Below are positions 31,417 to 64,000 of a DNA stretch of 64,000 nucleotides, in pieces. A model generated the notes under the pieces. That model was not told where the DNA came from. It was given only the letters and a program-made list of their open reading frames with translations, and did no database searches. Origin of the DNA: Leptogorgia sarmentosa (Eukaryota); assembly GCA_964658305.1 (NCBI GenBank), contig OZ210885.1:2914001-2978000 (forward strand), in the 5' to 3' direction. The translations under genes were made by a program, and so were the position numbers. The first letter of the stretch is position 1, and every line of letters begins with the position of its first letter.

Positions 31417-31519
31417 CTTCAGAAGAGACAGACAGTCAGATTGTTACAAATCACAAAACCCAATCACTCATCAATGAGTTCGATTAATTGGTGTTCAATG
31501 TAGGTAATTCTTGCTACTG

Positions 31520-31946
31520 TGCCTTAACCAAACCTTAATCATGCTTTCATTGTGCCTTTACCATACCCTTATCCTGCCATTACCGTGCTCCTTAACTATG
31601 CTATTCAACCATGCTCATCAACCATTCTCCTTTAACCATTCTCCTTAACCATGCTTTAACTATGCCTTAATTGTACCTTAATCGTGCTGCTCAACTATGC
31701 TCCTCAACTGTGCTCTTTAACCATGCTTATGAGTTATGAAACAACTCTCTAACAATGTTCCTTAATTTACCATGCCTTAACTGTATCCTAACCATACCTT
31801 GACCATAATTTAACCGTCCCTTAATCATGCAAAAAACGGTGTCTCAACCATACCCATACTATGCCTTATAACCATCCCTTAACCGTACCTTCTTCACCAT
31901 ACCTTAACCATGCCTTAACAGTACCTTAACCATACCTTAACTATGC
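31520..31946. repeat. Degenerate ~11-bp satellite (CCTTAACCATG-like); copies at ~45577-46003 and ~60121-60547
   Basis: Repeated CCTTAACCAT/CTTAACTAT motifs. Confidence 0.8.
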
Positions 31947-36183: not shown

Positions 36184-36265
36184 AGGGATATTATAAAATG
36201 ATATTATAACATCTATTCTAAGTAAAATAATAGTAGGCAGTAATAACATGAAGCACAGTTGAACG

Positions 36266-36590
36266 CAGGGATTATTCTAAGGAAATTTTATCACTGCACA
36301 AAAGCACAAAAAAATATAAAAATATGTGAATATAAAGTTGTGTTGGCATGGAAAAGGTCTGACTGCCCAATTCAGAACATCAAACTGTTTCCTATTTTCC
36401 TATTTAGCTTTTTGCTAAAATATGTAAAGTTATGAAACTATTACTGTTGTATATGCTTAAAGTTATTCCCAAATTCTAATGAATGATGAATAACATATTT
36501 TATTCACTGCACAAAATGTATTTTATCACTGCACAATTCTCATTTATCACTGCACAAATTGGTTATCACTGCACCTTAGAATAATCCCTG
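36266..36590 (+). mobile_element. MITE derivative of the hAT at 1-2643 (copy at 50318-50642)
   Basis: Same TIR, TSD GTTGAACG. The right end aligns to ~2415-2643. Confidence 0.92.
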
Positions 36591-38175: not shown

Positions 38176-38310
38176 GTTATCGACCTGGAACGAGGGGTAT
38201 TCCACAAAAAAATACCCCGAGGAATGAAATATTCCGAGGGCGCAGCCCGAGGAATATTTCATTCCGAGGGGTATTTTTTTGTGGAATACCCCGAGTGAAA
38301 GGTCGATAAC
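38176..38310 (+). repeat. 135-bp hairpin with CGAG/CGAG mismatches and a GCA loop (copies 52227-52361, 61338-61472)
   Basis: Arms are complementary except at the CGAG boxes and one GGAA/TGAA internal mismatch near the base. Confidence 0.9.
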
Positions 38311-39645
38311 AGATATATTATACCGAAAATTTTTCATCTTCGACACATTCTGTGTTTTGTCGGCCATGTTGCCAAGGAAATTGCCCGCAAAACAGGCCAG
38401 GCAGGAGGTCAAAATCCAAGTAGAGGGGAATATAAAGTGGAATTACCCTCCCAAGGTCAAATCGAGGGAAATACCGTAAAAAATCACACTATCACGTGGT
38501 ACAAATGCTGTTTTTTCATTGGACAATTTGAATTTGAGGTATAATATTATATAATAATATATATATCTGGAACGATAACATTCAGTCATTCAATGCGAAA
38601 AACGTGAAGCCTCGGTACTAGTCTTTTACGCGGTTTGGACGTCAGCCTCAGTCCCTCAAACGTCAAGTTTACGCGGTTTGGACGTCAGTTTCATTCCCCC
38701 TCTGCAAACCGTTACGCGGCCAGTATAAATGCGAACGCAATCAAGAAAAAAACATTTAAAAAATATCGCCAACGCAATGCAATACATTGTAGGAACAAAC
38801 TGTTTTGCTCCTAAAATTTATCGCATTGCGTTCGCTGTCAGAAAATGAAAGATAACCGATTCAGACGGTTTTTCTTTGTAAACCATAGCAGTATTTATTA
38901 GTATATAAATATTATAAGGTTGGCAAGTAAACAATAATGTGACTTACTACGGCTTACTAAAACAAGTCGAAAAAATCAACGTCTTGCCAACAAACGTCGC
39001 TAAAAAATAGCAGCCCCTACTTCTAGGATAGTGTTACTAAATACATACAACGTTGAACGTTTTTTGGCAACAAAACGAGTGAAAAAGTCGAAAAAATACG
39101 AAAAATTTCTTTCAATTTGCCGTGTCTCGAAGCTGGATGCCTTCTGACATCGCTGACGCGATCTTTTGTCGGTTTATTTATAACGAAGACAATGACGAAG
39201 ACAATGACGAAGACAATGACGAACACTTCTGTCGTGATACTTTTGTTGGCTTCACTTTTCGCTCTATGTTATCGTTCCAGATATAATATATAGAGTTCAC
39301 TGATAATCCCCTGCTTGATTTGGCCGCCATTTTGGGTCAATGTGCATCGTAGGCACTGAGCTATAAGAAGACTGGAGAGAGTGCACGCACTTTTTTTCAG
39401 ATAAAAGAGTGAAGCCAAAATAATGGCGTGGATTCATGTGATTCGTCATCATTCCATGACAGCACTTGCTCCGTCCTCATGGTATTTACCACTGACCAGG
39501 CTCAAATCTGAGCCCACTGCCGTTTTCACACCCCTGTCTGCGAGACTGCGTGCGCAGATACAAAAATATGGTTTGATTCCTCCACCCTCAAAAAATTGTA
39601 CTGTTCCCCAGAATTAAGACAATCGGAAGAAAGGACAGACACCAG

Positions 39646-39889
39646 GGGCCGGTTGTATCAAAGGCGTCAAGCTTAAGCGCTGGATAAGTCGAAAATATCC
39701 AACGAAATTATGAAGTATTGACTACAAGGAAACTAAACTTTTCTGTGTAAACATAACAACTATGCATAGAGATAGAACTACACATTTAGTTGATAAAATT
39801 TAAATTCAATTATTTACAAAATGAATAGAAGTGTTTTTAAAATTTTGCTTATCCACCGTTTAAGCTAAACGTCTTTGGTACAACCGGGC
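39646..39889. mobile_element. MITE with ~40-bp imperfect TIRs (copies in units 2 and 3)
   Basis: GCCGGTTGTATCAAAG...GGATAAG / CTTATCC...CTTTGGTACAACCGG. Confidence 0.65.
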
Positions 39890-41039
39890 AGAACGCGAGC
39901 ACATGGATTATGGAAATCGATGAGCAAAAACATGCGCGCGCAGCACAAATTATTGTTCGACCGCACCCCTCATTTTCTAAAATGACCTGGAGGTTGCGAA
40001 ATCCCCCCGGAATTATCATCCGGACAGAAACAAATCGAGATTTCGACTATACATAGTACCGCGCAAAAGACTGGGTCGAGTGAACTCTGGGAAATCCTTG
40101 TGACGTCAAGAATAGTGTGCTGACTCGCTGGCGCTCGGCAGCAATGAAACTGAAAACGTATTGTGACTTGTCAAGGACTACAGTTTACGGAGGCAAACAT
40201 TCTCGACAGTTCCACTGGTTGCCTCCGGATTCTTTCGTCTTCCGGTTTCTGTGAAAAGAGTTCATCAACATATTTACTTACTTAGCATTTTGATAAAGAA
40301 ATGTATCTTCAAAAACGTGTTAATTTGATAATATAGTTCCAAGCAACACAACCTTCACAACCTAACCTATATCAACTGATTTCATTGTTATCTCATACCG
40401 GGTAACTATTGAAATCCGCTAGTTTGTCAGAGCCGCCGCGCTCTTTTCCTTTTAAACTGATGGAAAACTATCACATCACACTAGTTTGAACTTTGCCTGA
40501 TTTACATGCATGTTTTAAAGACATGCATGAGTGTTGGTTAGACTATTCTGCCTTAACTTAAGTCATGACAAACGATCGATTTTTCTTCACGTTTAATCTC
40601 TCTTTTAAAAGCAAAACGAATCTATCTTTTAATACGACGCCCGAAAAAATAGTCCCCGCCCCTTATACCAATGTCAAATATTCACTTCCGGTTATCCGTG
40701 ATTGTAGTAAATGAATGACGTATCATTGACATTTGAGAACACTACCATATTAGGATGCATGCAAGGATGATAGACACTAAGGCACTAGTTACAGTGATAG
40801 ATGTATTCTGGAGTAAAGCTTTGTGGTTAAATAATAAATATAAATAACGTAAAGGATATAATTATATTACAGTGATTTAAAATATTATATAAAAAATATC
40901 AATTTTTACATCCTTTACAACGAGTATTATTATAAGAACCAGGCAATGGATGAGCTATTATAAAGCTATATATACATTTTACTTGTTTTTAAATCTACCA
41001 CTCGCATATCACGGGCTGGAAACCGTGGTATTTGAAATT

Positions 41040-44000
41040 CAAAGAAATTCAAAAATTCGGTGCATCTCAATTCACGAGACTCAGTACGAAGGTCAAGACA
41101 TAATTGCTCGTTTTTTTTTACCCCATTCTTTTTTTTAAAGGTAGGCGTGCTCTACTCTTCTTAGTGTTTCCCGTAGAAATATATAATTTGTAACCCTTCT
41201 CGGACAAATATATTTTGCCAAGGCAAAAAAATTGTCCTGAGCACATGATGCGGGACATCGTATTGGCGCAGATGGTGTTGCTTGGTAGGGCTCCTGAGAA
41301 GTGGAGAAGAAAATGTTATTAAAATTACTTTTCAATCAATCACATTACTCACCAAAATATCATATATTCACATTTTTGAATTGCTAAATTTGAACTCACC
41401 TTTTGTTCTTCTCCAGTTTGTCCTTTGGAATTTTCCATGTTTTCCACTGGTCGCCTCCGGTTTTGTTCTTCATATCTGTAAAGAGAGTTCATCGAAATAT
41501 TTATTACTTGGCATTTTGATAAACACATTTATCTTCAAAACACAACCCTCACAAATAAAGCAACCTTCCAAACTATCAACCGATTTATTGTACATATCGC
41601 ATACCGGGTAATGATTGAAATCTATATTTAATGTACAGACTGCGTGCACGATAGTTAATGATTTAAGAAAACAAACTGACTGCTCATTACAATTTAGTGA
41701 TTTAAAAGCAATTAATGGGATCAAACGATCAAACGATCTTCTCGCCCGTATTTACAGGTCCGTAACTCCATCATTCCTTAGCACTAGAATGAGTGACAGA
41801 TGAAAAAGAGGCCACTGAGTAAACAACTACCAAGGTGTAAACATATCACACTAGTCTATCCCATGCACTCATGATGACATCATAGCTTATAAAAGACTTC
41901 GGAAGGTAATAATGACAAGTAAAACGAAAAGAGCATAAGTTTTCAAGCAGGTGTCTCTCCCTGCTTCTTCGTCGTTTTCTTCAAAGAAGAAAAATGCCTC
42001 AGCTCATGAAATTCAAATTCATTTGGAACATAATATTTGTGGAAAAATTGTCACCAATGCCGAGACAGTTTTAAAGTCTGTTACCCTGGACCCATTGACA
42101 GACAGATCTAAATGTCGGGAAAGGAAATTAAGCATAACATGCACCCTGTAAGCCGGAAAGACCTACCCATCAGGGATATGAGGATATCATCAACTACGTG
42201 CATGCAGCAACGCTTCGCTAACATCAGTGAAAGAATGGGTCCATTTAGGCATCTATTGCAATCTACATCACATAAACATGTCAATACTAGGTAAAGTGCT
42301 GTCAGTGCGTTCTATTTGTTCCTAACAACTTGCTATTTGGAATTATTTTGTTTTTACACCTTTTATGGTCCTCTGCTCCATCCTTTACGTCAGTCCCTCT
42401 ATCTAATGCAGTCGGTTGTGCACCAATGTCTGTCGTTTCAGACAACCCTATAACACGTTCGGGAATCTAAAAACACAATTACTTTTGGTATAGTACTGAT
42501 TCTATAAAAATTCCTAAAAAATGTTGGGGTGATAGCATAAAAAAGAACAATATAACAATAATGTGCGTTTTATGATGTTTGGTATATTCTAATTTTTTAA
42601 ATTCCAATATTTTTTTGTATCCGCATAGATTTTGCGTTATGCTAACGTTTGCTTGTTTTTGCGTTAATTACATTATGATTCGTTAATATTTAAAAATGAT
42701 AAAAATACAGTCCTAAATTTACAAAAAAACATGAATTTACTGGTAAAAATATTGAATATTTATTTATTTATATGTACCTCCATATCTAAATCCACGTTGT
42801 CTTTGCGGTGCACTGGAGTTTTCTCACTCATAATTGCACCATTCTCAGAATCCCTCTCTTCGTTAGTATTTCTGTTTGTTGAATACTGAAGCTAAACGAA
42901 ATGACATTTTCAGAACACAGAATTTCATTGACATCATTTCATCGGAACCATTCTGTCGTCCTATATTTGTAAATTTTAAGATAGTCTAGAAGTTGTTTTT
43001 GAAGAAGGTCAACGAACCGCACAATGTTCAAGACAAAATCCAGTGTTTTTTTATGATTGTCAATTACACCAAACAATTAAGAAATTATTTGATGAGGTTT
43101 TTGTGATATGCGGAATTATCAAGGTCGAGGTAAGCCTTATAATCAGCCGAGCCGAATGTTTTATCATACATTTGAAGAATAATAAACAAAGTATTAACAC
43201 ATGAAAAACTTTATTTATGATATAAGCATAATAAGCATTGCATTTGTCTGTGTTAATTAAATAGATACCGCTTGCTAATCATCGCAGGCTCATTTTGCAG
43301 ACAACTCAATCATCTGCTGGCAGATAACTGGATTTTCTGTAGGTTGCGTGAAGCTCTTAGCCAATCAAATTGCTATTACCAATTACAATGTATAATAACT
43401 TAAGTTACATGCAAAATAATATACAGTTAGCATTGCATTTGTAAATACATCGATACTGTACGTACCTGCTTTAATCGTTGGTGTTTTTCAACGAGTATTT
43501 TATTTTGCTTTCTTAGCGTTGTTACCTCCTTACAGAAGATACAGAAAGATTGTCAGTAACAAATCACAAAATTCCTGCCACCCAATCAGTTATCAATGAG
43601 TTCGATTAATTGGTGCCAGTACCTAGTACGTACATTGATAAACTTCGAATTGGCTATCACTAATACCTAATGAACTAGCTCTTCCTGTTGAATGTAGTAA
43701 TTCATGCTACTGTAATTTGTTTAAGTGTGTGTCAGAAAGTCAAGGTTTATATATACTTCTTTCACCTTTTGCAAATATATAACCAAATCATGCTTTCCGA
43801 CCATGCTCCTTAACCATGATCCTCAACCATGCCCTTGATCATGTTTCCTAACTAATGCTCTTTAACTGTGCTTTAACCAAAACTTACCGGGAATAATGTT
43901 CAAGACAAAATCCAGTATATGACTGTGCGCATGTTTTTTTATGAAAATAATTAAGAAATTATTTGATGAGGTTTTTGTGATATGCGGAATTATCAAGGTC

Positions 44001-45473
44001 GAGGTAAGCCTTATCATCAGCCGAGCCGAATGTTTTATCATACATTTGAAGAATAATAAACAAAGTATTAACACATGGAAAACTTTATTTGACGTATAGG
44101 TAATAGTATGGTTTCGAGTGCAATTTGGAATTAACATGCACGAGTGAGTTTTCCAAAGTCCTCAAAATAGCACGAGTCCGAAGAACGAGTGCTATTTGAG
44201 AGTTTTGAGGTCTTTGGAAAACTCACGAGTGTATGTTATCCAAATTGCACGAGAAACCATACTCTTACTTGTTAATAGTTTGCATAAAAGTATTTGAGAC
44301 AATTGTAGTTTTAACTGTCTCAAAGCGAAATTTCACCGGCAGAGTTTTCTTGCTTAGTTTATTTCACATTTTACAGCGATAACGGTTTCAAAAATTCACC
44401 CAAACACGTAACTTTTGTTAGTCTTGTTGGAGATAAACTTTTTTCCGTCATAAGAAAAAGCTAAAAGCTATATTTTCGACTCTAATTTGATTGGTTGAAA
44501 GTGATAACAATTGCACCGTGATAACACAAAATTGCACTGTGATAACATGTGCACGAAATTTTCACACTGTGATTACACAAAATTGCACTGTGATTACAGA
44601 AAATTGCACTGTGATTACACGAAATTGCACTGTGATTACAGAAAATTGCACTGTGATTACAGAAAATTGCACTGTGATTACACGAAATTGCACTGTGATT
44701 ACACAAAATTGTACTGTGATTACAGAAAATTGCACTGTGATAACACGAAATTGCACTGTGATTACAGAAAATTGCACTGTGATTACAGAAAATTGCACTG
44801 TGATTACAAAAAATTGCACTGTGATTACAGAAAATTGCACTGTGATTTGGGATTAACTGCACTGAAATGAACCAATTGGAGTCGAGTAATACTTTTATGT
44901 ATATTAATAATGATATAATAAGCATTTGTCTGTGTTAATTAAATAGATACCGCTTGCTAATCATTGCAGGTTCATTTTGCAGACAACTCAGTCATCTGCT
45001 AGCAGATAACTGGATTTTCTGCATGTTGTGTGAAGCTCTTAGCCAATCAAATTGCTATTACCAATTACAATGTATAATAACTTAAGTTACATGCAAAATA
45101 ATACAGTTAGCATTGCATAAATTGTAAATACATCAATACTGTACGTACCTGCTTTAATCGTTGGTTTCCTTCAACGAGTATTTTATTTTGCTTTCTTAGC
45201 GTTGTTACCTCCTTACAGAAGATACAGAAAGATTGTCAGTAACAAATCACAAAATTCCTACCACCCAATCAGTTATCAATGAGTTCGATTAATTGGTGCC
45301 AGGCCTTGTTCGTAAACTTCCAATTGGCTGTGATCACTAATAGCTAATGACCAGTAATTCTTGCTACTATAATTTGCAGTAACATTGTAAAATATGTGCT
45401 GGCTAAATACACTGATGCATGTCTCCTTTAATTCTTGGTTTTCTACTGTCAGTTGCCTTTGCAACTGTTCAAC
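41040..45473 (-). pseudogene. Truncated copy of paralogue C, unit 2
   Basis: Premature stop at 41135 (HAYL*) and a ~550-bp deletion (unit-1 26328-26880) that removes the His and DNQ motifs. Confidence 0.85.
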
Positions 45474-46523
45474 CTTCAGAAGAGACAGACAGTCAGATTG
45501 TTACAAATCACAAAACCCAATCACTCATCAATGAGTTCGATTAATTGGTGTTCAATGTAGGTAATTCTTGCTACTGTGCCTTAACCAAACCTTAATCATG
45601 CTTTCATTGTGCCTTTACCATACCCTTATCCTGCCATTACCGTGCTCCTTAACTATGCTATTCAACCATGCTCATCAACCATTCTCCTTTAACCATTCTC
45701 CTTAACCATGCTTTAACTATGCCTTAATTGTACCTTAATCGTGCTGCTCAACTATGCTCCTCAACTGTGCTCTTTAACCATGCTTATGAGTTATGAAACA
45801 ACTCTCTAACAATGTTCCTTAATTTACCATGCCTTAACTGTATCCTAACCATACCTTGACCATAATTTAACCGTCCCTTAATCATGCAAAAAACGGTGTC
45901 TCAACCATACCCATACTATGCCTTATAACCATCCCTTAACCGTACCTTCTTCACCATACCTTAACCATGCCTTAACAGTACCTTAACCATACCTTAACTA
46001 TGCATAAATGAATAGAATGGGAGTGTTTGTGTTCTAGTTGGTGCGTAATGATTCGATGATATTCAGCCCTATTAATATGCAATATAGCGATTAAATTGCC
46101 AAATATTCTGTACTGTAATGGATTACATATACTGAATCTATGTATTGACTATTGACAGACTAAGATCGACGATCACAACATTCTTAGTACATAATTATAT
46201 CATTACTTACATTAACCTTTTCCAAATCCATATGTCGCAAAAGACCTCTGGCAAAAGACAATGATATCTAAATAAATACAGACATATTCAAACAATTATC
46301 TGACATTATACATCAAAACGGAAATATTAAATTCCAAAATAATAATGAACCTCCTTAAACAGATAATGTTAATGTAATACTACTCCAATTACGCACTGTA
46401 CTAACAATTCCAAAACTTCACACACAAAAATGTTTACAAATGACATTACATGGGTTTTTTTCGTTTTTTTCTTCAATACTATCTTCAATATTATTTCGAT
46501 TACTCAGCATAAAAATCAGTGAT

Positions 46524-49500
46524 CAGCGCTCTCACAACGAATTTTCAAAATTCCTTAGCGTGAGCTCCGGAATTCCTCAGATATTCCCAAAATTCCTTAA
46601 ATGACTTGTTTATCCTTGCAACTACCCCCAAAGTACCCTGCAATCCCGTTCTTTTGCCTCTTGTTTTAAAAACAAGACTCAAATAGTTTCAAAATCGTTA
46701 ATAAACACAATTTGTGAGGTACCTGAGCTTACTAAAGTATATACAAGATAAAATGGGATAGAATGAGCAGTGGCGTAGCGAAGCCATTCCGATAGGGGGG
46801 GTGTAAAGCAAAATATTTTACCGACCTAAATAGGTTTGGGCACGACAGGGCCAGATTATTTGGCGGGGAGGGCGAGTCTCACGAGACGCCACCATGGTTG
46901 GCGTCGAGCGAGAAAATTTTGTGAATTTAGAGCCTCTAGATCGCCGGAAACGGCCATTTCAGAGTGTTAACCAAAGCCTTAACACTCAGAATAGAGTCTA
47001 GAGGTCTTAGATGTAGTACAACCACAGCTTGCGAACTAATCGCACACGGACATAGACAACAGACATATACTTTTACATATTTTACTTTTCTACTCTCTCT
47101 GTGATTTAATGACATAAATTGAAAATTTACCGACCCTTTGGCTTCAAAACCGACCACAATTCATTTACCGACCATTTTCAAAAAAATTGGGGGGGTGTCA
47201 CACCCCCCACACCCCCCACACCCCCCCCCCCTCGCTACGCCCCTGAATACTACGCTGAATGTGTGCTTTACAAAGATATTTTAATTTGTGAATAAGACAG
47301 TACTCAATATATGTGCACTTGTCAATCTTTTACATTCTATATTCTCACTCAGCTTAGTGTTAGGCTATTGAAATTATGAAAATAGATCATTTTCAATACT
47401 CGCTGTTCACACAATTTGAACACAACTGATTTCAAAAGATAATTTCTTATATAATGTAGAACACGAATATGTGAATATTCTTAAATATATTGCAAAATTA
47501 GCTAAATAAATATCAAAGCACTAACTTGATTGTTGCGTTTAATATTCATATTTAATTTCTAGGTTACAGACTCAATGTGACAATTTTGATGACAAAAGTG
47601 GTGTCTGACTGGCTTGCCTGTATATTAGAATGTGTCAAAGAGCCTTGCTGTCGATCAATCAATTATAAAAAGATACTGATAGCTCAGAATGAATCGAATT
47701 GTGAAATGTTGCATAATACGGTCCACAACTCTTCTCAGAAATCTTTACAAGCAAATTTTTCTTATGACCATGTTTATCTCAGTAATCCTCAAAAGGTAAA
47801 AATAATTCACTACGCATAAAGGTACTACGATTTGTCGAGCACAATTCGGAGTCTGGCGTATGTAATCGGGTGAACACGCGCGAGAAAGTCGCATTTCAAA
47901 TTACGATTCAAACTTTACACCCAGGAATTACATGCAGAGGTCTAACTGTTGTACCCATTTTTGTGCGCATGCTCGGCAAGTTACTTGATGCGTACATCTG
48001 ATTGGATGACGACCAAATTTGAACTTGCCGAGTTGATCATTTTTTAGCCAGGCCGCATTAAAAAAGTGGGCACATGAAAATGCCACTTTTTAATATTTAG
48101 TTAGACCTCTGTCTGATATATACTCTGTGCTCTTAACGAAGTAGAATGATGGCATACGTCTTTTTTCATACGTCTGAATGCGAATTGTACCGACTAATCG
48201 TAGCGTGTAAACGTATCTTGAAAGTGCACATGTCTAAAATCTTGCACTAACAAAGTGTAAAGATCAAGATCACATAATTGAAAAACGCACCATGACCAAT
48301 GTCTCTTTGAATACTAAACGAATGTAAAAAACATTGGTTGGAAATAATTTGTTTCGTCAGATGTATTTGATAGAGTTCTAGAAAAAATCTTGAAAAATTT
48401 CAAATAAATCAACATCGTCTATAATAAGACGATGAACTTCCGTCGACTTGACGAATTCTGATTTATCATTGAGGTGATGAGTTCACATGATGCCATACAA
48501 TCGATGCCAGTCTATAGTATACTCTCGAATTATCTTTCCAGTATACAACATCACCGAACATTTTTGTTCTCCTTATTTCGCATTAAACCTGTTTCATGCG
48601 AAACAGAATCTATTCGGTTTTTAGAAATTTTATTACCAAAAAGAATAAGATTATCCAAGAATACATTATTAGTGTCCATTTATAGGAATACAATGAAAGC
48701 TGCTTTTCGAAGGTCCTAAATGGCAATATAAAAGGTAAGTGATATGCGATGATCTCTTAGAGTCCATTTTGGGTCAAAGTATTTTTACTTTTAATTAATA
48801 GCTATAATAAACAACCTTAACGATCTCAAAATTTCAAAATCATCGAAGTTTGAAATAGAGGGATATCAGGGCCTGCGCGAACGGAGGGAAAAGGGGGTAT
48901 TATCCCCCCCCCCCCCCCCAATGATATGGCATATAGTGCCCTATTAATTCTTTCCAGTATAACTTGGACATTGAGAGGACAGTAGTAAATAGTGGTATTA
49001 TCACTTATGAATTGGTGTTACGCACAGATTTCGCCGTTATAGTACCCTGCGAGCAGAGCCTTACAGTAAATACCAAGATTGGTAACAATAAAAATCAGGG
49101 CTGCCTGCAACTTCTTTCTGGGGCATGGGGCACCATCCCTCTTTCGGGGTAAGGTAATTTTATGCTCGATCGAATAACTCGATTATTGCATTTTGGGGCC
49201 CCTCAAAACATAGGTCCGGGGTAAATTGCCCATCCTCCTTAACGATGCGGTCGTGATAAAAATCAATATTGATCGCAAAACGTGTTTCGTGTGGATCAGA
49301 AACGTCAACAAAATGCGAACTGGGAACAGTAGTATATTCCAGTGCCAGGGCATTGGGCCCGTGTATGTGGTGGCTTACAAGTTCAATATTCATTTATCTC
49401 AGCTTCGTGGAGCAGAATTTAGAAGTTATAGGCGCTCAACGCTGTCTGAAATGGACATTTCCGGGTTTGTAGCAGGGATTATTCTAAGGTGCAGTGATAA

Positions 49501-51954
49501 CCAATTTGTGCAGTGATAAATGAGAATTGTGCAGTGATAAAATACATTTTGTGCAGTGAGTAAAATATGTTATCCCATGGTTATTCATCATTTATTAGAA
49601 TTTGGGAATAACTTTAAGCATATACAACAGCAATAGTTTCATAACTTTACATATTTTAGCAAAAAGCTAAATAGGAAAATAGGAAACAGTTTGATGTTCT
49701 GAATTGGGCAGTCAGACCTTTTCCAATACAACTTTATATTCACATATTTCTATATTTTGTTGTGCTTTTGTGCAGTGATAAAATTTCCTTAGAATAATCC
49801 CTGGTTTGTAGAGAATTTAAATGTTCAATGGTGGCGCCTCGAACAGAACAAAACAATTATACACACTAGAGAAATTTGGCCCCGCTAGTAAAAGTCCCTT
49901 TTCGTCTGAAAATCAGCGAAATTCATGCTGAAATTGCAGGAAGTCAAGTTTAGGGAGCTCAAAGATCAAACAAAATTTTGTTGGACCCCCTTTAACGTAG
50001 CTACATTTCTTTATTGTTTCATAATTATTTTCCTTTCCTTTCCATCCTTCCTATTTTATAATGATATTTCCACCCTTCATTAAAGTCCCTTTTCGTGTTT
50101 GCCCCACTGAACAACCTTAAAAAAGGCCCTGCAAAGAATTTTGCTTTTTATGGTGCGATACAAAACACGTGACATCAACATGTGCACTTTTTATTGAATT
50201 GTACCCCCATTATGAAAATGGACGCGCCGGCCCTGAGGGATATTATAAAATGATATTATAACATCTATTCTAAGTAAAATAATAGTAGGCAGTAATAACA
50301 TGAAGCACAGTTGAACGCAGGGATTATTCTAAGGAAATTTTATCACTGCACAAAAGCACAAAAAAATATAAAAATATGTGAATATAAAGTTGTGTTGGCA
50401 TGGAAAAGGTCTGACTGCCCAATTCAGAACATCAAACTGTTTCCTATTTTCCTATTTAGCTTTTTGCTAAAATATGTAAAGTTATGAAACTATTACTGTT
50501 GTATATGCTTAAAGTTATTCCCAAATTCTAATGAATGATGAATAACATATTTTATTCACTGCACAAAATGTATTTTATCACTGCACAATTCTCATTTATC
50601 ACTGCACAAATTGGTTATCACTGCACCTTAGAATAATCCCTGGTTGAACGATGAGCAGGTGAATTAAACCGTGTTGATTTAAACCGTCCTTTTTATTACA
50701 GCAAAAGATTGCGCTGATCTTTATAAGGAAGGTCACACAACAAATGGTGTTTATTTCATTGATCCAGACGGCAAAGGCGCATTTAAAGTAAGATGTGATA
50801 TGACGACATCAGGAGGGGGTTGGACGATCATTCAAAGACGTGTTGATGGTAGTGTAGATTTCTACCGTAACTGGAAAGATTACAAAAATGGTTTTGGTGA
50901 TCCAACAGGCGAATATTGGCTTGGTCTGGACAAAATCAACCGACTAACAAATGTCAGTACAAAAGTCATTCGATTCGACCTTTGGGACACAACAGGAAAC
51001 ACGAAGTACGCTGAATACAGCTTCTTTGCCATCGCTTCAGAAGATGCCAAATATAAATTGAGATTGGATACATATTCAGGTAACACAGTTTAAAGAACGA
51101 GACAATGGTTGACACTCAGTGGCGTAGCGAAGCCATTCCGATAGGGGGGGGTGTAAAGCAAAATATTTTACCGACCTAAATAGGTTTGGGCACGACAGGG
51201 CCAGATTATTTGGCGGGGAGGGCGAGTCTCACGAGACGCCACCATGGTTGGCGTCGAGCGAGAAAATTTTGTGAATTTAGAGCCTCTAGATCGCCGGAAA
51301 CGGCCATTTCAGAGTGTTAACCAAAGCCTTAACACTCAGAATAGAGTCTAGAGGTCTTAGATGTAGTACAACCACAGCTTGCGAACTAATCGCACACGGA
51401 CATAGACAACAGACATATACTTTTACATATTTTACTTTTCTACTCTCTCTGTGATTTAATGACATAAATTGAAAATTTACCGACCCTTTGGCTTCAAAAC
51501 CGACCACAATTCATTTACCGACCATTTTCAAAAAAATAGGGGGGGTGTCACACCCCCCACACCCCCCCCCCTCGCTACGCCCCTGAGAATGAGCGACTTA
51601 TCATCTCCTGAGCCGGACCGGAAGCGCACATTCGCGCAATTTATCAGAAACTATAATTATGTAAATTAACTATAATCACCATTTCTTAAATTTTAGTTTG
51701 CTGTGACATGTGTTTCACAGGCATTTTACCACTAAGATAAAGAATTACCTTATTATTAATTAGTAATTCTTTAGCTCAGGGCATTTTACCAAAGGCTTTT
51801 CTCACTGAGCTAAAGAATTACTGGAGAGAGTGGCTTTTCTCGAAATATTAAAATTCCTTAGAAAATTCCTTAAAAATTGAACTCCTTAAAAAAATCCTTA
51901 AAACTTTGCTAAATTCCTATTTCTGAGGAAAAATCCTTAGAAGTGAGAGCACTG
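46524..51954. mobile_element. Loaded hAT MITE, unit 2; composite element 46768-51585 (MITEs 46768-47245 and 51117-51585)
   Basis: Same TIRs and TSDs (TCAGTGAT, AGAATGAG) as in unit 1. Confidence 0.93.
47563..51079 (+). pseudogene. Captured PAN + FReD exons, unit 2 (47563-47795, 48686-48734, 50702-51079)
   Basis: Translations identical to unit 1. Confidence 0.88.
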
Positions 51955-52804
51955 TCAGTGATAAAAATATATATTCAAGCAGCTGGGAAAATTGAGGAAA
52001 ATTGAGGTGGAAAATTGCTGGAAAATTGAGGAAATTGCAACAGCTGGGAAATTTGTGGCGCATGCGCTAGATTTGGCTTGCGTGGAATCCCACGAATAAT
52101 GAACTCGCGCGCGAATTTCGAATGTCGTGGAAGCATAACAATAAGAAATTCCTATTCAAACTAATTAAATATCCATGATCCCGATGACGTCATTAGCAGT
52201 ATATAATCCCCAGTGAACTCTTATCAGTTATCGACCTGGAACGAGGGGTATTCCACAAAAAAATACCCCGAGGAATGAAATATTCCGAGGGCGCAGCCCG
52301 AGGAATATTTCATTCCGAGGGGTATTTTTTTGTGGAATACCCCGAGTGAAAGGTCGATAACAGATATATTATACCGAAAATTTTTCATCTTCGACACATT
52401 CTGTGTTTTGTCGGCCATGTTGCCAAGGAAATTGCCCGCAAAACAGGCCAGGCAGGAGGTCAAAATCCAAGTAGAGGGGAATATAAAGTGGAATTACCCT
52501 CCCAAGGTCAAATCGAGGGAAATACCGTAAAAAATCACACTATCACGTGGTACAAATGCTGTTTTTTCATTGGACAATTTGAATTTGAGGTATAATATTA
52601 TATAATAATATATATATCTGGAACGATAACATTCAGTCATTCAATGCGAAAAACGTGAAGCCTCGGTACTAGTCTTTTACGCGGTTTGGACGTCAGCCTC
52701 AGTCCCTCAAACGTCAAGTTTACGCGGTTTGGACGTCAGTTTCATTCCCCCTCTGCAAACCGTTACGCGGCCAGTATAAATGCGAACGCAATCAAGAAAA
52801 AAAC

Positions 52805-53409
52805 CAGTGCTCTCACTTCTAAGGATTTTTCCTCAGAAATAGGAATTTAGCAAAGTTTTAAGGATTTTTTTAAGGAGTTCAATTTTTAAGGAATTTTCTA
52901 AGGAATTTTAATATTTCGAGAAAAGCCACTCTCTCCAGTAATTCTTTAGCTCAGTGAGAAAAGCCTTTGGTAAAATGCCCTGAGCTAAAGAATTACTAAT
53001 TAATAATAAGGTAATTCTTTATCTTAGTGGTAAAATGCCTGTGAAACACATGTCACAGCAAACTAAAATTTAAAAAATGGTGATTATAGTTAATTTACAT
53101 AATTATAGTTTCTGATAAATTGCGCGAATGTGCGCTTCCGGTCCGGCTCAGGAGATGATAAGTCGCTCATTCTATCCCATTTTATCTTGTATATACTTTA
53201 GTAAGCTCAGGTACCTCACAAATTGTGTTTATTAACGATTTTGAAACTATTTGAGTCTTGTTTTTAAAACAAGAGGCAAAAGAACGGGATTGCAGGGTAC
53301 TTTGGGGGTAGTTGCAAGGATAAACAAGTCATTTAAGGAATTTTGGGAATATCTGAGGAATTCCGGAGCTCACGCTAAGGAATTTTGAAAATTCGTTGTG
53401 AGAGCGCTG
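52805..53409 (-). mobile_element. Empty 605-bp copy of the CAGYGCTCTCAC MITE, inserted only in unit 2
   Basis: TSD AAAAAAAC (52797-52804, 53410-53417). Single internal AGAATGAG site. Units 1 and 3 show the empty target (~38750, ~61910). Confidence 0.95.
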
Positions 53410-55589
53410 AAAAAAACATTTAAAAAATATCGCCAACGCAATGCAATACATTGTAGGAACAAACTGTTTTGCTCCTAAAATTTATCGCATTGCGTTCGCT
53501 GTCAGAAAATGAAAGATAACCGATTCAGACGGTTTTTCTTTGTAAACCATAGCAGTATTTATTAGTATATAAATATTATAAGGTTGGCAAGTAAACAATA
53601 ATGTGACTTACTACGGCTTACTAAAACAAGTCGAAAAAATCAACGTCTTGCCAACAAACGTCGCTAAAAAATAGCAGCCCCTACTTCTAGGATAGTGTTA
53701 CTAAATACATACAACGTTGAACGTTTTTTGGCAACAAAACGAGTGAAAAAGTCGAAAAAATACGAAAAATTTCTTTCAATTTGCCGTGTCTCGAAGCTGG
53801 ATGCCTTCTGACATCGCTGACGCGATCTTTTGTCGGTTTATTTATAACGAAGACAATGACGAAGACAATGACGAAGACAATGACGAACACTTCTGTCGTG
53901 ATACTTTTGTTGGCTTCACTTTTCGCTCTATGTTATCGTTCCAGATATAATATATAGAGTTCACTGATAATCCCCCTGTGGATTCATGTGATTCGTCATC
54001 ATTCCATGACAGCACTTGCTCCGTCCTCATGGTATTTACCACTGACCAGGCTCAAATCTGAGCCCACTGCCGTTTTCACACCCCTGTCTGCGAGACTGCG
54101 TGCGCAGATACAAAAATATGGTTTGATTCCTCCACCCTCAAAAAATTGTACTGTTCCCCAGAATTAAGACAATCGGAAGAAAGGACAGACACCAGGGGCC
54201 GGTTGTATCAAAGGCGTCAAGCTTAAGCGCTGGATAAGTCGAAAATATCCAACGAAATTATGAAGTATTGACTACAAGGAAACTAAACTTTTCTGTGTAA
54301 ACATAACAACTATGCATAGAGATAGAACTACACATTTAGTTGATAAAATTTAAATTCAATTATTTACAAAATGAATAGAAGTGTTTTTAAAATTTTGCTT
54401 ATCCACCGTTTAAGCTAAACGTCTTTGGTACAACCGGGCAGAACGCGAGCACATGGATTATGGAAATCGATGAGCAAAAACATGCGCGCGCAGCACAAAT
54501 TATTGTTCGACCGCACCCCTCATTTTCTAAAATGACCTGGAGGTTGCGAAATCCCCCCGGAATTATCATCCGGACAGAAACAAATCGAGATTTCGACTAT
54601 ACATAGTACCGCGCAAAAGACTGGGTCGAGTGAACTCTGGGAAATCCTTGTGACGTCAAGAATAGTGTGCTGACTCGCTGGCGCTCGGCAGCAATGAAAC
54701 TGAAAACGTATTGTGACTTGTCAAGGACTACAGTTTACGGAGGCAAACATTCTCGACAGTTCCACTGGTTGCCTCCGGATTCTTTCGTCTTCCGGTTTCT
54801 GTGAAAAGAGTTCATCAACATATTTACTTACTTAGCATTTTGATAAAGAAATGTATCTTCAAAAACGTGTTAATTTGATAATATAGTTCCAAGCAACACA
54901 ACCTTCACAACCTAACCTATATCAACTGATTTCATTGTTATCTCATACCGGGTAACTATTGAAATCCGCTAGTTTGTCAGAGCCGCCGCGCTCTTTTCCT
55001 TTTAAACTGATGGAAAACTATCACATCACACTAGTTTGAACTTTGCCTGATTTACATGCATGTTTTAAAGACATGCATGAGTGTTGGTTAGACTATTCTG
55101 CCTTAACTTAAGTCATGACAAACGATCGATTTTTCTTCACGTTTAATCTCTCTTTTAAAAGCAAAACGAATCTATCTTTTAATACGACGCCCGAAAAAAT
55201 AGTCCCCGCCCCTTATACCAATGTCAAATATTCACTTCCGGTTATCCGTGATTGTAGTAAATGAATGACGTATCATTGACATTTGAGAACACTACCATAT
55301 TAGGATGCATGCAAGGATGATAGACACTAAGGCACTAGTTACAGTGATAGATGTATTCTGGAGTAAAGCTTTGTGGTTAAATAATAAATATAAATAACGT
55401 AAAGGATATAATTATATTACAGTGATTTAAAATATTATATAAAAAATATCAATTTTTACATCCTTTACAACGAGTATTATTATAAGAACCAGGCAATGGA
55501 TGAGCTATTATAAAGCTATATATACATTTTACTTGTTTTTAAATCTACCACTCGCATATCACGGGCTGGAAACCGTGGTATTTGAAATT

Positions 55590-58500
55590 CAAAGAAATTC
55601 AAAAATTCGGTGCATCTCAATTCACGAGACTCAGTACGAAGGTCAAGACATAATTGCTCGTTTTTTTTTACCCCATTCTTTTTTTTAAAGGTAGGCGTGC
55701 TCTACTCTTCTTAGTGTTTCCCGTAGAAATATATAATTTGTAACCCTTCTCGGACAAATATATTTTGCCAAGGCAAAAAAATTGTCCTGAGCACATGATG
55801 CGGGACATCGTATTGGCGCAGATGGTGTTGCTTGGTAGGGCTCCTGAGAAGTGGAGAAGAAAATGTTATTAAAATTACTTTTCAATCAATCACATTACTC
55901 ACCAAAATATCATATATTCACATTTTTGAATTGCTAAATTTGAACTCACCTTTTGTTCTTCTCCAGTTTGTCCTTTGGAATTTTCCATGTTTTCCACTGG
56001 TCGCCTCCGGTTTTGTTCTTCATATCTGTAAAGAGAGTTCATCGAAATATTTATTACTTGGCATTTTGATAAACACATTTATCTTCAAAACACAACCCTC
56101 ACAAATAAAGCAACCTTCCAAACTATCAACCGATTTATTGTACATATCGCATACCGGGTAATGATTGAAATCTATATTTAATGTACAGACTGCGTGCACG
56201 ATAGTTAATGATTTAAGAAAACAAACTGACTGCTCATTACAATTTAGTGATTTAAAAGCAATTAATGGGATCAAACGATCAAACGATCTTCTCGCCCGTA
56301 TTTACAGGTCCGTAACTCCATCATTCCTTAGAATGAGTGACAGATGAAAAAGAGGCCACTGAGTAAACAACTACCAAGGTGTAAACATATCACACTAGTC
56401 TATCCCATGCACTCATGATGACATCATAGCTTATAAAAGACTTCGGAAGGTAATAATGACAAGTAAAACGAAAAGAGCATAAGTTTTCAAGCAGGTGTCT
56501 CTCCCTGCTTCTTCGTCGTTTTCTTCAAAGAAGAAAAATGCCTCAGCTCATGAAATTCAAATTCATTTGGAACATAATATTTGTGGAAAAATTGTCACCA
56601 ATGCCGAGACAGTTTTAAAGTCTGTTACCCTGGACCCATTGACAGACAGATCTAAATGTCGGGAAAGGAAATTAAGCATAACATGCACCCTGTAAGCCGG
56701 AAAGACCTACCCATCAGGGATATGAGGATATCATCAACTACGTGCATGCAGCAACGCTTCGCTAACATCAGTGAAAGAATGGGTCCATTTAGGCATCTAT
56801 TGCAATCTACATCACATAAACATGTCAATACTAGGTAAAGTGCTGTCAGTGCGTTCTATTTGTTCCTAACAACTTGCTATTTGGAATTATTTTGTTTTTA
56901 CACCTTTTATGGTCCTCTGCTCCATCCTTTACGTCAGTCCCTCTATCTAATGCAGTCGGTTGTGCACCAATGTCTGTCGTTTCAGACAACCCTATAACAC
57001 GTTCGGGAATCTAAAAACACAATTACTTTTGGTATAGTACTGATTCTATAAAAATTCCTAAAAAATGTTGGGGTGATAGCATAAAAAAGAACAATATAAC
57101 AATAATGTGCGTTTTATGATGTTTGGTATATTCTAATTTTTTAAATTCCAATATTTTTTTGTATCCGCATAGATTTTGCGTTATGCTAACGTTTGCTTGT
57201 TTTTGCGTTAATTACATTATGATTCGTTAATATTTAAAAATGATAAAAATACAGTCCTAAATTTACAAAAAAACATGAATTTACTGGTAAAAATATTGAA
57301 TATTTATTTATTTATATGTACCTCCATATCTAAATCCACGTTGTCTTTGCGGTGCACTGGAGTTTTCTCACTCATAATTGCACCATTCTCAGAATCCCTC
57401 TCTTCGTTAGTATTTCTGTTTGTTGAATACTGAAGCTAAACGAAATGACATTTTCAGAACACAGAATTTCATTGACATCATTTCATCGGAACCATTCTGT
57501 CGTCCTATATTTGTAAATTTTAAGATAGTCTAGAAGTTGTTTTTGAAGAAGGTCAACGAACCGCACAATGTTCAAGACAAAATCCAGTGTTTTTTTATGA
57601 TTGTCAATTACACCAAACAATTAAGAAATTATTTGATGAGGTTTTTGTGATATGCGGAATTATCAAGGTCGAGGTAAGCCTTATAATCAGCCGAGCCGAA
57701 TGTTTTATCATACATTTGAAGAATAATAAACAAAGTATTAACACATGAAAAACTTTATTTATGATATAAGCATAATAAGCATTGCATTTGTCTGTGTTAA
57801 TTAAATAGATACCGCTTGCTAATCATCGCAGGCTCATTTTGCAGACAACTCAATCATCTGCTGGCAGATAACTGGATTTTCTGTAGGTTGCGTGAAGCTC
57901 TTAGCCAATCAAATTGCTATTACCAATTACAATGTATAATAACTTAAGTTACATGCAAAATAATATACAGTTAGCATTGCATTTGTAAATACATCGATAC
58001 TGTACGTACCTGCTTTAATCGTTGGTGTTTTTCAACGAGTATTTTATTTTGCTTTCTTAGCGTTGTTACCTCCTTACAGAAGATACAGAAAGATTGTCAG
58101 TAACAAATCACAAAATTCCTGCCACCCAATCAGTTATCAATGAGTTCGATTAATTGGTGCCAGTACCTAGTACGTACATTGATAAACTTCGAATTGGCTA
58201 TCACTAATACCTAATGAACTAGCTCTTCCTGTTGAATGTAGTAATTCATGCTACTGTAATTTGTTTAAGTGTGTGTCAGAAAGTCAAGGTTTATATATAC
58301 TTCTTTCACCTTTTGCAAATATATAACCAAATCATGCTTTCCGACCATGCTCCTTAACCATGATCCTCAACCATGCCCTTGATCATGTTTCCTAACTAAT
58401 GCTCTTTAACTGTGCTTTAACCAAAACTTACCGGGAATAATGTTCAAGACAAAATCCAGTATATGACTGTGCGCATGTTTTTTTATGAAAATAATTAAGA

Positions 58501-60017
58501 AATTATTTGATGAGGTTTTTGTGATATGCGGAATTATCAAGGTCGAGGTAAGCCTTATCATCAGCCGAGCCGAATGTTTTATCATACATTTGAAGAATAA
58601 TAAACAAAGTATTAACACATGGAAAACTTTATTTGACGTATAGGTAATAGTATGGTTTCGAGTGCAATTTGGAATTAACATGCACGAGTGAGTTTTCCAA
58701 AGTCCTCAAAATAGCACGAGTCCGAAGAACGAGTGCTATTTGAGAGTTTTGAGGTCTTTGGAAAACTCACGAGTGTATGTTATCCAAATTGCACGAGAAA
58801 CCATACTCTTACTTGTTAATAGTTTGCATAAAAGTATTTGAGACAATTGTAGTTTTAACTGTCTCAAAGCGAAATTTCACCGGCAGAGTTTTCTTGCTTA
58901 GTTTATTTCACATTTTACAGCGATAACGGTTTCAAAAATTCACCCAAACACGTAACTTTTGTTAGTCTTGTTGGAGATAAACTTTTTTCCGTCATAAGAA
59001 AAAGCTAAAAGCTATATTTTCGACTCTAATTTGATTGGTTGAAAGTGATAACAATTGCACCGTGATAACACAAAATTGCACTGTGATAACATGTGCACGA
59101 AATTTTCACACTGTGATTACACAAAATTGCACTGTGATTACAGAAAATTGCACTGTGATTACACGAAATTGCACTGTGATTACAGAAAATTGCACTGTGA
59201 TTACAGAAAATTGCACTGTGATTACACGAAATTGCACTGTGATTACACAAAATTGTACTGTGATTACAGAAAATTGCACTGTGATAACACGAAATTGCAC
59301 TGTGATTACAGAAAATTGCACTGTGATTACAGAAAATTGCACTGTGATTACAAAAAATTGCACTGTGATTACAGAAAATTGCACTGTGATTTGGGATTAA
59401 CTGCACTGAAATGAACCAATTGGAGTCGAGTAATACTTTTATGTATATTAATAATGATATAATAAGCATTTGTCTGTGTTAATTAAATAGATACCGCTTG
59501 CTAATCATTGCAGGTTCATTTTGCAGACAACTCAGTCATCTGCTAGCAGATAACTGGATTTTCTGCATGTTGTGTGAAGCTCTTAGCCAATCAAATTGCT
59601 ATTACCAATTACAATGTATAATAACTTAAGTTACATGCAAAATAATACAGTTAGCATTGCATAAATTGTAAATACATCAATACTGTACGTACCTGCTTTA
59701 ATCGTTGGTTTCCTTCAACGAGTATTTTATTTTGCTTTCTTAGCGTTGTTACCTCCTTACAGAAGATACAGAAAGATTGTCAGTAACAAATCACAAAATT
59801 CCTACCACCCAATCAGTTATCAATGAGTTCGATTAATTGGTGCCAGGCCTTGTTCGTAAACTTCCAATTGGCTGTGATCACTAATAGCTAATGACCAGTA
59901 ATTCTTGCTACTATAATTTGCAGTAACATTGTAAAATATGTGCTGGCTAAATACACTGATGCATGTCTCCTTTAATTCTTGGTTTTCTACTGTCAGTTGC
60001 CTTTGCAACTGTTCAAC
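55590..60017 (-). pseudogene. Truncated copy of paralogue C, unit 3
   Basis: Same stop (55685) and deletion as unit 2. Confidence 0.85.
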
Positions 60018-61059
60018 CTTCAGAAGAGACAGACAGTCAGATTGTTACAAATCACAAAACCCAATCACTCATCAATGAGTTCGATTAATTGGTGTTCAAT
60101 GTAGGTAATTCTTGCTACTGTGCCTTAACCAAACCTTAATCATGCTTTCATTGTGCCTTTACCATACCCTTATCCTGCCATTACCGTGCTCCTTAACTAT
60201 GCTATTCAACCATGCTCATCAACCATTCTCCTTTAACCATTCTCCTTAACCATGCTTTAACTATGCCTTAATTGTACCTTAATCGTGCTGCTCAACTATG
60301 CTCCTCAACTGTGCTCTTTAACCATGCTTATGAGTTATGAAACAACTCTCTAACAATGTTCCTTAATTTACCATGCCTTAACTGTATCCTAACCATACCT
60401 TGACCATAATTTAACCGTCCCTTAATCATGCAAAAAACGGTGTCTCAACCATACCCATACTATGCCTTATAACCATCCCTTAACCGTACCTTCTTCACCA
60501 TACCTTAACCATGCCTTAACAGTACCTTAACCATACCTTAACTATGCATAAATGAATAGAATGGGAGTGTTTGTGTTCTAGTTGGTGCGTAATGATTCGA
60601 TGATATTCAGCCCTATTAATATGCAATATAGCGATTAAATTGCCAAATATTCTGTACTGTAATGGATTACATATACTGAATCTATGTATTGACTATTGAC
60701 AGACTAAGATCGACGATCACAACATTCTTAGTACATAATTATATCATTACTTACATTAACCTTTTCCAAATCCATATGTCGCAAAAGACCTCTGGCAAAA
60801 GACAATGATATCTAAATAAATACAGACATATTCAAACAATTATCTGACATTATACATCAAAACGGAAATATTAAATTCCAAAATAATAATGAACCTCCTT
60901 AAACAGATAATGTTAATGTAATACTACTCCAATTACGCACTGTACTAACAATTCCAAAACTTCACACACAAAAATGTTTACAAATGACATTACATGGGTT
61001 TTTTTCGTTTTTTTCTTCAATACTATCTTCAATATTATTTCGATTACTCAGCATAAAAA

Positions 61060-61073
61060 TCAGTGACAGTGAT
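61060..61073. other. hAT excision footprint TCAGTGA-CAGTGAT
   Basis: Both TSD copies are present, each missing one inner base. The unit offset changes by 5439 = 5437+8-6. Confidence 0.88.
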
Positions 61074-64000
61074 AAAAATATATATTCAAGCAGCTGGGAA
61101 AATTGAGGAAAATTGAGGTGGAAAATTGCTGGAAAATTGAGGAAATTGCAACAGCTGGGAAATTTGTGGCGCATGCGCTAGATTTGGCTTGCGTGGAATC
61201 CCACGAATAATGAACTCGCGCGCGAATTTCGAATGTCGTGGAAGCATAACAATAAGAAATTCCTATTCAAACTAATTAAATATTCATGATCCCGATGACG
61301 TCATTAGCAGTATATAATCCCCAGTGAACTCTTATCAGTTATCGACCTGGAACGAGGGGTATTCCACAAAAAAATACCCCGAGGAATGAAATATTCCGAG
61401 GGCGCAGCCCGAGGAATATTTCATTCCGAGGGGTATTTTTTTGTGGAATACCCCGAGTGAAAGGTCGATAACAGATATATTATACCGAAAATTTTTCATC
61501 TTCGACACATTCTGTGTTTTGTCGGCCATGTTGCCAAGGAAATTGCCCGCAAAACAGGCCAGGCAGGAGGTCAAAATCCAAGTAGAGGGGAATATAAAGT
61601 GGAATTACCCTCCCAAGGTCAAATCGAGGGAAATACCGTAAAAAATCACACTATCACGTGGTACAAATGCTGTTTTTTCATTGGACAATTTGAATTTGAG
61701 GTATAATATTATATAATAATATATATATCTGGAACGATAACATTCAGTCATTCAATGCGAAAAACGTGAAGCCTCGGTACTAGTCTTTTACGCGGTTTGG
61801 ACGTCAGCCTCAGTCCCTCAAACGTCAAGTTTACGCGGTTTGGACGTCAGTTTCATTCCCCCTCTGCAAACCGTTACGCGGCCAGTATAAATGCGAACGC
61901 AATCAAGAAAAAAACATTTAAAAAATATCGCCAACGCAATGCAATACATTGTAGGAACAAACTGTTTTGCTCCTAAAATTTATCGCATTGCGTTCGCTGT
62001 CAGAAAAAGAAAGATAACCGATTCAGACGGTTTTTCTTTGTAAACCATAGCAGTATTTATTAGTATATAAATATTATAAGGTTGGCAAGTAAACAATAAT
62101 GTGACTTACTACGGCTTACTAAAACAAGTCGAAAAAATCAACGTCTTGCCAACAAACGTCGCTAAAAAATAGCAGCCCCTACTTCTAGGATAGTGTTACT
62201 AAATACATACAACGTTGAACGTTTTTTGGCAACAAAACGAGTGAAAAAGTCGAAAAAATACGAAAAATTTCTTTCAATTTGCCGTGTCTCGAAGCTGGAT
62301 GCCTTCTGACATCGCTGACGCGATCTTTTGTCGGTTTATTTATAACGAAGACAATGACGAAGACAATGACGAAGACAATGACGAACACTTCTGTCGTGAT
62401 ACTTTTGTTGGCTTCACTTTTCGCTCTATGTTATCGTTCCAGATATAATATATAGAGTTCACTGATAATCCCCTGCTTGATTTGGCCGCCATTTTGGGTC
62501 AATGTGCATCGTAGGCACTGACCTATAAGAAGACTGGAGAGAGTGCACGCACTTTTTTTCAGATAAAAGAGTGAAGCCAAAATAATGGCGTGGATTCATG
62601 TGATTCGTCATCATTCCATGACAGCACTTGCTCCGTCCTCATGGTATTTACCACTGACCAGGCTCAAATCTGAGCCCACTGCCGTTTTCACACCCCTGTC
62701 TGCGAGACTGCGTGCGCAGATACAAAAATATGGTTTGATTCCTCCACCCTCAAAAAATTGTACTGTTCCCCAGAATTAAGACAATCGGAAGAAAGGACAG
62801 ACACCAGGGGCCGGTTGTATCAAAGGCGTCAAGCTTAAGCGCTGGATAAGTCGAAAATATCCAACGAAATTATGAAGTATTGACTACAAGGAAACTAAAC
62901 TTTTCTGTGTAAACATAACAACTATGCATAGAGATAGAACTACACATTTAGTTGATAAAATTTAAATTCAATTATTTACAAAATGAATAGAAGTGTTTTT
63001 AAAATTTTGCTTATCCACCGTTTAAGCTAAACGTCTTTGGTACAACCGGGCAGAACGCGAGCACATGGATTATGGAAATCGATGAGCAAAAACATGCGCG
63101 CGCAGCACAAATTATTGTTCGACCGCACCCCTCATTTTCTAAAATGACCTGGAGGTTGCGAAATCCCCCCGGAATTATCATCCGGACAGAAACAAATCGA
63201 GATTTCGACTATACATAGTACCGCGCAAAAGACTGGGTCGAGTGAACTCTGGGAAATCCTTGTGACGTCAAGAATAGTGTGCTGACTCGCTGGCGCTCGG
63301 CAGCAATGAAACTGAAAACGTATTGTGACTTGTCAAGGACTACAGTTTACGGAGGCAAACATTCTCGACAGTTCCACTGGTTGCCTCCGGATTCTTTCGT
63401 CTTCCGGTTTCTGTGAAAAGAGTTCATCAACATATTTACTTACTTAGCATTTTGATAAAGAAATGTATCTTCAAAAACGTGTTAATTTGATAATATAGTT
63501 CCAAGCAACACAACCTTCACAACCTAACCTATATCAACTGATTTCATTGTTATCTCATACCGGGTAACTATTGAAATCCGCTAGTTTGTCAGAGCCGCCG
63601 CGCTCTTTTCCTTTTAAACTGATGGAAAACTATCACATCACACTAGTTTGAACTTTGCCTGATTTACATGCATGTTTTAAAGACATGCATGAGTGTTGGT
63701 TAGACTATTCTGCCTTAACTTAAGTCATGACAAACGATCGATTTTTCTTCACGTTTAATCTCTCTTTTAAAAGCAAAACGAATCTATCTTTTAATACGAC
63801 GCCCGAAAAAATAGTCCCCGCCCCTTATACCAATGTCAAATATTCACTTCCGGTTATCCGTGATTGTAGTAAATGAATGACGTATCATTGACATTTGAGA
63901 ACACTACCATATTAGGATGCATGCAAGGATGATAGACACTAAGGCACTAGTTACAGTGATAGATGTATTCTGGAGTAAAGCTTTGTGGTTAAATAATAAA

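Follow-up and report, generated by a model that had tools for sequence, protein, structure and literature searches.

The excision of hAT transposons has been described to proceed via hairpin formation in the flanks and subsequent end joining (PMC5499845, PMC3499496, PMC5873905). In the most common Ds footprints the base adjacent to the element is lost on each side, and common Ds footprints carry one added palindromic base (both according to Table 1 of PMC1978519). In the window, i.e. the whole stretch of 64,000 nucleotides from Leptogorgia sarmentosa that was analysed, a scar was found in the third unit of a tandem array. It resembles the footprints reported for Ac/Ds in plants and yeasts and for TcBuster in human cells in that both TSD copies were kept and the element-adjacent base was lost. 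In contrast to the common Ds footprints it shows no added palindromic base; no P nucleotides are visible, and the A at the junction may be taken for a hairpin-apex base common to both flanks. Unlike the induced Ac/Ds and TcBuster events, the scar is natural, of germline or clonal origin, and it is situated within a tandem array. No title on octocoral hAT footprints was present among the literature matches listed, which is weak evidence of absence. The excision mechanism itself is textbook knowledge and not new, and the locus is of value because it preserves very recent hAT activity in a clean, natural state. The coordinates of all features are compiled in Table 1.

Table 1. Features of the array, of the scar and of the mobile elements in the 64,000-nucleotide window.
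Feature	Position	Strand	Remarks
hAT transposase element	7..2643	+	782-aa ORF 7-2355, no stop; right end 2643; left end outside window
Tandem array	25779..64000	.	Units start at 25779, 40494, 55044, 63656 (runs off window)
Loaded MITE-A, unit 1	32467..37903	+	5437 bp; TSD TCAGTGAT at 32459-32466, 37904-37911
Composite inside MITE-A, unit 1	32711..37534	+	Two direct MITE-B copies, 32711-33195 and 37065-37534
Cargo exon 1, PAN domain	33513..33745	+	Predicted, AG/GT ends; identical copy from 47563
Cargo exon 2, 49-bp linker	34636..34684	+	Predicted, in phase with exons 1 and 3; identical copy from 48686
MITE-D in cargo	34817..36183	.	8-bp TSD; contains MITE-C1, 35421-35751 (8-bp TSD)
MITE-C2 in cargo	36266..36590	.	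8-bp TSD, 17-bp perfect TIR
Cargo exon 3, first half of fibrinogen-related domain	36650..37027	+	Predicted; identical copy from 50702
Loaded MITE-A, unit 2	46524..51954	+	5431 bp; TSD at 46516-46523, 51955-51962
Composite inside MITE-A, unit 2 counterpart	46768..51585		
Unloaded MITE-A, unit 2 only	52805..53409	-	605 bp, inverted; TSD AAAAAAAC at 52797-52804, 53410-53417
Scar in unit 3, read as excision footprint	61060..61073	.	TSD bases 1-7 followed by TSD bases 2-8

The scar (TCAGTGACAGTGAT, with a run of five A on either side) has the letters TCAGTGA+CAGTGAT, and thus contains both 8-bp target copies, each lacking the element-adjacent base. In a comparison of unit 3 with the loaded allele the left match extends to TSD base 7 and the right match starts from TSD base 2, and 0 bases of the element were left behind. 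The complete target TCAGTGAT is present four times in the window, and all four copies flank the two loaded elements as TSDs. At least four copies were also found in 25 of 100 shuffled windows, showing that the number is not above chance and that it is the positions that count. The scar junction exists in sequence data, as a contig of run X1 covers 60560-61231 with 0 differences; this run may be the source sample of the window and is not independent. As far as this contig allows, an assembly error was rejected as the source of the scar. It was therefore confirmed, in the window and in the X1 contig, that the letters of unit 3 represent a TSD pair without the element, as had been stated in the preliminary description.

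Contigs of 6 of the 19 public runs were compared, and the site was spanned in two of the six, in X1 with the scar and in X3 with an empty allele. The X3 contig (308 bases, 60925-61238) stems from a different sample and study; it has 0 substitutions and lacks 6 letters at 61061, which yields a single copy of TCAGTGAT between identical flanks. In comparison to this allele, which is known from one contig of one sample, the scar is longer by 6 bp. A search for a single-copy ancestral allele had been recommended in the preliminary description, and such an allele, and not the 14-mer, is what was found in this one sample. None of the contigs of X8, X9, X10 and X13 reaches across the site, and in X9 and X10 a contig departs from the reference at 61053 and 61028, respectively. 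No junction into MITE-A was found in X1 among the matches listed, and contigs show presence, not absence. The flank to the left of the site (60600-61060) was structurally very polymorphic in X3, X8, X9 and X10, with several indels and with differing continuations among the samples at 61028 and 61053.

Because the sister units 1 and 2 hold a TSD-flanked element at this site, an empty allele is known, and exactly one base pair was trimmed symmetrically on both sides, the scar in unit 3 is very probably a hAT-type excision footprint. This had been the central proposal of the preliminary description, and it is in good agreement with the trimmed TSD pair without an element, with the 8-bp TSD of the family, with the single-TSD allele in X3 and with the hairpin model. 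The 14-mer of unit 3 was rejected as the ancestral state, because an insertion there cannot yield the observed TSD, and a deletion via TSD homology was rejected, because its outcome would be a single site and not the scar. The same letters would also result if the inner 6 bp had been duplicated in the empty site, and by sequence the scar is formally indistinguishable from slippage. It is nevertheless highly improbable that unit 3 descends from the empty allele by a 6-bp slippage duplication in the middle of the target site, without any excision. The flanks of the empty allele are indeed identical to those of unit 3, but slippage must have struck exactly bases 2-7 of an 8-bp site that is occupied by a transposon in the sister units, non-periodic 6-bp tandem repeats start at only 50 of the 63,988 window positions, and the array would need units of two insertion states.

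Three copies of MITE-A, the element at this site in units 1 and 2, are present in the 64-kb window. The two loaded copies have both ends intact and differ from one another by 2 substitutions and 3 short indels. The unloaded copy is identical at 604 of 605 positions to the outer parts of both loaded copies, with the substitution at element position 336. It is located 850 bp from the loaded element of unit 2 and 7,650 bp from the scar, and its insertion has a single clean inner target at a site that is empty in units 1 and 3. MITE-A has an imperfect TIR of 12 bp (CAGYGCTCTCAC, 11 of 12 bases match), a 7-bp subterminal motif that occurs three times near each end, and 8-bp TSDs at two independent sites (TCAGTGAT and AAAAAAAC), and its 605 bp contain no ORF of at least 100 aa. 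It thus resembles Ds1-type hAT MITEs, which are described as likewise short and non-coding, with a TIR of about 12 bp, subterminal repeats and an 8-bp TSD (PMC3260210), whereas the TIR sequence differs from that of Ac/Ds. By its TSD and TIR MITE-A is a putative hAT-family MITE, with the limitation that hairpinned flanks have been described for MULE elements, too. Exact 8-bp TSDs were found for 8 of the 10 element rows checked, representing 6 distinct insertion events, and the two rows without TSD are single MITE-B halves of a composite. The MITE-A end pattern yielded one match in a metagenome collection, which is not the host genome; the match was the end of a relative, and no loaded copy was found there. 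The respective contig (L001, positions 1-78) carries the right end of the relative at another site, with 91% identity over 70 bp. In prokaryote genomes there were three matches over at most 24 bases, which were taken as chance, and in viral contigs there were 0 matches.

At the left border of the window a hAT element with a transposase gene was found. Its 782-aa ORF scored 22.7 bits against PF05699, the hAT dimerisation domain (cut-off 21.4), and had 52 relatives among 8000 candidates scored, while no solved structure was matched by sequence. The right end of the element agrees with the MITE-C TIR at 17 of 17 bases and with the MITE-A TIR at 6 of 12 bases. Judged by these ends, it is likely to be the autonomous partner of the MITE-C copies in the cargo, and not evidently that of MITE-A. 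It shows that hAT partners exist in the genome for elements that have MITE-C-type ends and 8-bp TSDs; a transposase matching the MITE-A ends was not found in the 64-kb window. The intact-looking transposase with matching MITE-C ends offers a basis for developing a native transposon tool.

The array comprises at least four units, and unit 3 is not the last one. The junctions at 40494, 55044 and 63656 are identical and contain neither a MITE end nor a footprint, and the array is therefore not a direct product of MITE-A transposition. Duplications generated by reversed Ac ends likewise yield tandem arrays with hAT elements and a footprint inside, but in the model as presented in PMC3744419 an element end or a footprint is found at the duplication junction. 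An origin of the array by reversed-ends (alternative) transposition was rejected, because its junctions carry neither. Left of the site, unit 1 stands apart from units 2 and 3 at all variants but one, including substitutions, a 549-bp deletion and a VNTR. The exception is a 6-bp indel at 56328, left of the VNTR, in which unit 1 agrees with unit 2. On the right, beginning with the site itself, it is unit 3 that stands apart from the other two, namely at the site and at positions 61284 and 62008. At the latter position the contigs of X1, X3 and X10 carry the base of unit 3, and the base common to units 1 and 2 looks derived, although the segment is multi-copy and the polarity is soft.

This distribution of variants suggests that unit 2 is probably a hybrid formed by unequal crossing-over, with the loaded element copied from unit 1. 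A single clean crossover is contradicted by the indel at 56328, unless a later deletion occurred in unit 3. If unit 2 is a hybrid, two loaded units out of three are no proof of a loaded ancestor, and the units come down to just two lineages, a loaded and a scarred one. The shift of the flank relationships at or near the site would also arise if MITE-A ends from two units had paired and at least one whole array unit had left as a macrotransposon, in which case the scar would join the left flank of one unit to the right flank of another. Paired-end excision is known for Ac, as reported in PMC9910405, but ordinary unequal crossing-over gives the same pattern and no displaced unit is known, and the loss of a whole unit was given hardly any weight.

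The VNTR has a period of 21 bp and comprises 18.5 copies in unit 1 (30403-30790) and 13.5 copies each in units 2 and 3 (44565-44847 and 59109-59391); its region holds 430-bp direct repeats. A deletion of about 114 bp, in which a short filler is present, is private to unit 2 (53976-53977); it lies 567 bp from the new MITE-A copy, and the joint is present in X1. Older tandem paralogs with frames of 222-224 aa, which are 46-65% identical, are located on the minus strand at 13574-21867 and 26372-28208, and in units 2 and 3 the 549-bp deletion cuts the paralog frame. For the host gene of the array no Pfam family was found with any of four frames, and there was no homolog among the longer proteins. 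The paralog frames gave only weak Atlas leads (0.87-0.90), all of which point to clusters from bacteria; several of these clusters are cysteine-peptidase or deamidase families.

The loaded copies of MITE-A contain a pair of MITE-B elements with 3.9 kb of cargo in between. As one 8-bp TSD (AGAATGAG) encloses the pair, while neither copy has a TSD of its own, the composite is, by its sequence, a unit that moved as a whole, the mark of a macrotransposon. It resembles the Ac macrotransposons of maize, for which one outer TSD and carried host DNA are reported (PMC9910405), but it differs from them in that it is formed by two MITEs of 0.47 kb, resides in an animal, and is nested in a MITE of another family. 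Exon 1 of the cargo scored 23.3 bits against PF00024 (cut-off 21.4), and exon 3 covers profile positions 3-129 of 221. The cargo is predicted to be a gene fragment, with the start and the last exon absent. It had been described as FReD cargo before, which is correct insofar as half of this domain is present; it is, however, not a FReD gene, but a set of three internal exons encoding PAN, a linker and half of the FReD. Relatives of the FReD frame were found in the octocorals Dendronephthya (66%) and Xenia (64-65%) as well as in sea anemones and a stony coral, and the closest matches had 82-89%. Three further MITEs, MITE-D, MITE-C1 and MITE-C2, are nested in the cargo. Of all features of the locus, the MITE-B composite with its three in-phase host exons is perhaps the most interesting one. 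An 11-mer consisting of the target site and right flank (37905, 51956, 61067) occurs elsewhere in the window only in subterminal repeats of the C family, with 10 of 13 matches, which may be due to chance or to target bias.

Which form of MITE-A has left unit 3 was judged from the copies in the neighbouring units. A hop of an unloaded 605-bp MITE-A from unit 3 into unit 2 is favoured, because a single event would account for both the scar and the new copy in unit 2, and the whole chain of events was given about an even chance. MITE-A would have inserted, unloaded, at TCAGTGAT, and the region would then have been duplicated. The MITE-B composite with the PAN/FReD exons would have landed in the copy of unit 1 only, and unequal crossing-over would have turned unit 2 into a hybrid that is of the unit-3 type to the left and of the unit-1 type from the element rightwards. 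From what is known of hAT chemistry, a transposase supplied in trans would have cut one base into each flank and the flanks would have been hairpinned; end joining could then have produced TSD(1-7)+TSD(2-8), either with no added bases or via one shared A. Finally, the freed MITE would have been inserted in inverted orientation at 52805, generating a new 8-bp TSD. Two parts of the chain are seen directly, i.e. the single-TCAGTGAT allele in another sample and MITE-A between 8-bp duplications in units 1 and 2.

Local hopping of Ac and Tol2 likewise leaves a scar and a closely linked new copy with its own TSD, and hAT elements are reported to favour linked reinsertion (PMC2753552). Here, in contrast, we infer the link between the scar as donor site and the MITE-A copy in unit 2, and 7.65 kb is at the very short end of the distances. 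If the hop was local, it is plausible that cut-and-paste transposition occurred after or during array expansion, as had been proposed in the preliminary description. Against the local hop stands that the reinsertion of Tol2 on the donor chromosome is reported to amount to only about 15%. In addition, the unloaded copy contains one substitution, which has a probability of 0.09-0.14 at the divergence of the units, and the source of this copy may be another locus or an array unit beyond 64000.

The one-base difference would fit another source, and in that case the unloaded copy of unit 2 could be an unrelated insertion, while the loaded 5.4-kb element left unit 3. In favour of this, unit 2 is loaded and is free of substitutions relative to unit 3 across 7.1 kb of the left flank; moreover, the loaded element has two intact ends, and an Ac macrotransposon of 28 kb is described to be able to excise, leaving a modified TSD (PMC9910405). 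However, an exit of the loaded element would require a second, independent event for the near-identical MITE-A inside the array, and the loaded state of unit 2, as an apparent hybrid, is no second witness. A loaded copy with a TSD other than TCAGTGAT was not seen in the window or in the metagenome, prokaryote and viral scans, which are collections distinct from the host genome. Taken together, the departure of the loaded form is rather unlikely. It would include a relay, in which the MITE-B pair carried the PAN/FReD exons into MITE-A and the ends of MITE-A then excised the whole 5.4-kb nest of four families, and this relay remains a tentative idea. A second mobilisation of the FReD cargo had been suggested earlier for the case that the loaded form had left; both the new unloaded, near-identical copy in the adjacent unit and the probable origin of the loaded element of unit 2 as a recombination copy of that of unit 1 count against it. 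If the relay were true, immune-type exons of the host would be passed between hAT families in a living, coral-like population, and a new site with a new TSD would be expected.

As a further explanation, the scar could predate the present array or stem from another haplotype. The unloaded MITE-A would then have left once, recombination would later have placed the scarred allele next to loaded ones, and the copy in unit 2 would have come from another unit or locus. Both substitutions that mark unit 3 are situated within 950 bp to the right of the scar, and no other substitution separates unit 3 from unit 2 in 8.4 kb, as would be expected of a tract of separate origin; furthermore, the locus is structurally very polymorphic among the samples, and there are units beyond the window. 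On the other hand, two substitutions are thin evidence, the nearby new copy of MITE-A is left unexplained, and X3, the one further sample in which the site is spanned, carries the empty allele and not the scar. An older scar was thus regarded as improbable. The chances given to the local hop, to the loaded exit, to the older scar, to slippage and to the loss of whole units were set by judgement.

For a single site the empty, the inserted, the scarred and probably also the reinserted state are visible, with nearly identical flanks, indicating that hAT transposition is very recent or ongoing in this animal. The different states of the site are PCR-ready markers of hAT activity. If it was the loaded form that moved, nests of MITEs would be a route by which exons of expanding lectin-type gene families are shuffled. 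Between the hAT element and the array, frames resembling fibronectin type III and a likely membrane segment were found at 3396-6231; they scored below the Pfam cut-offs and are probably exons of a receptor-type gene.
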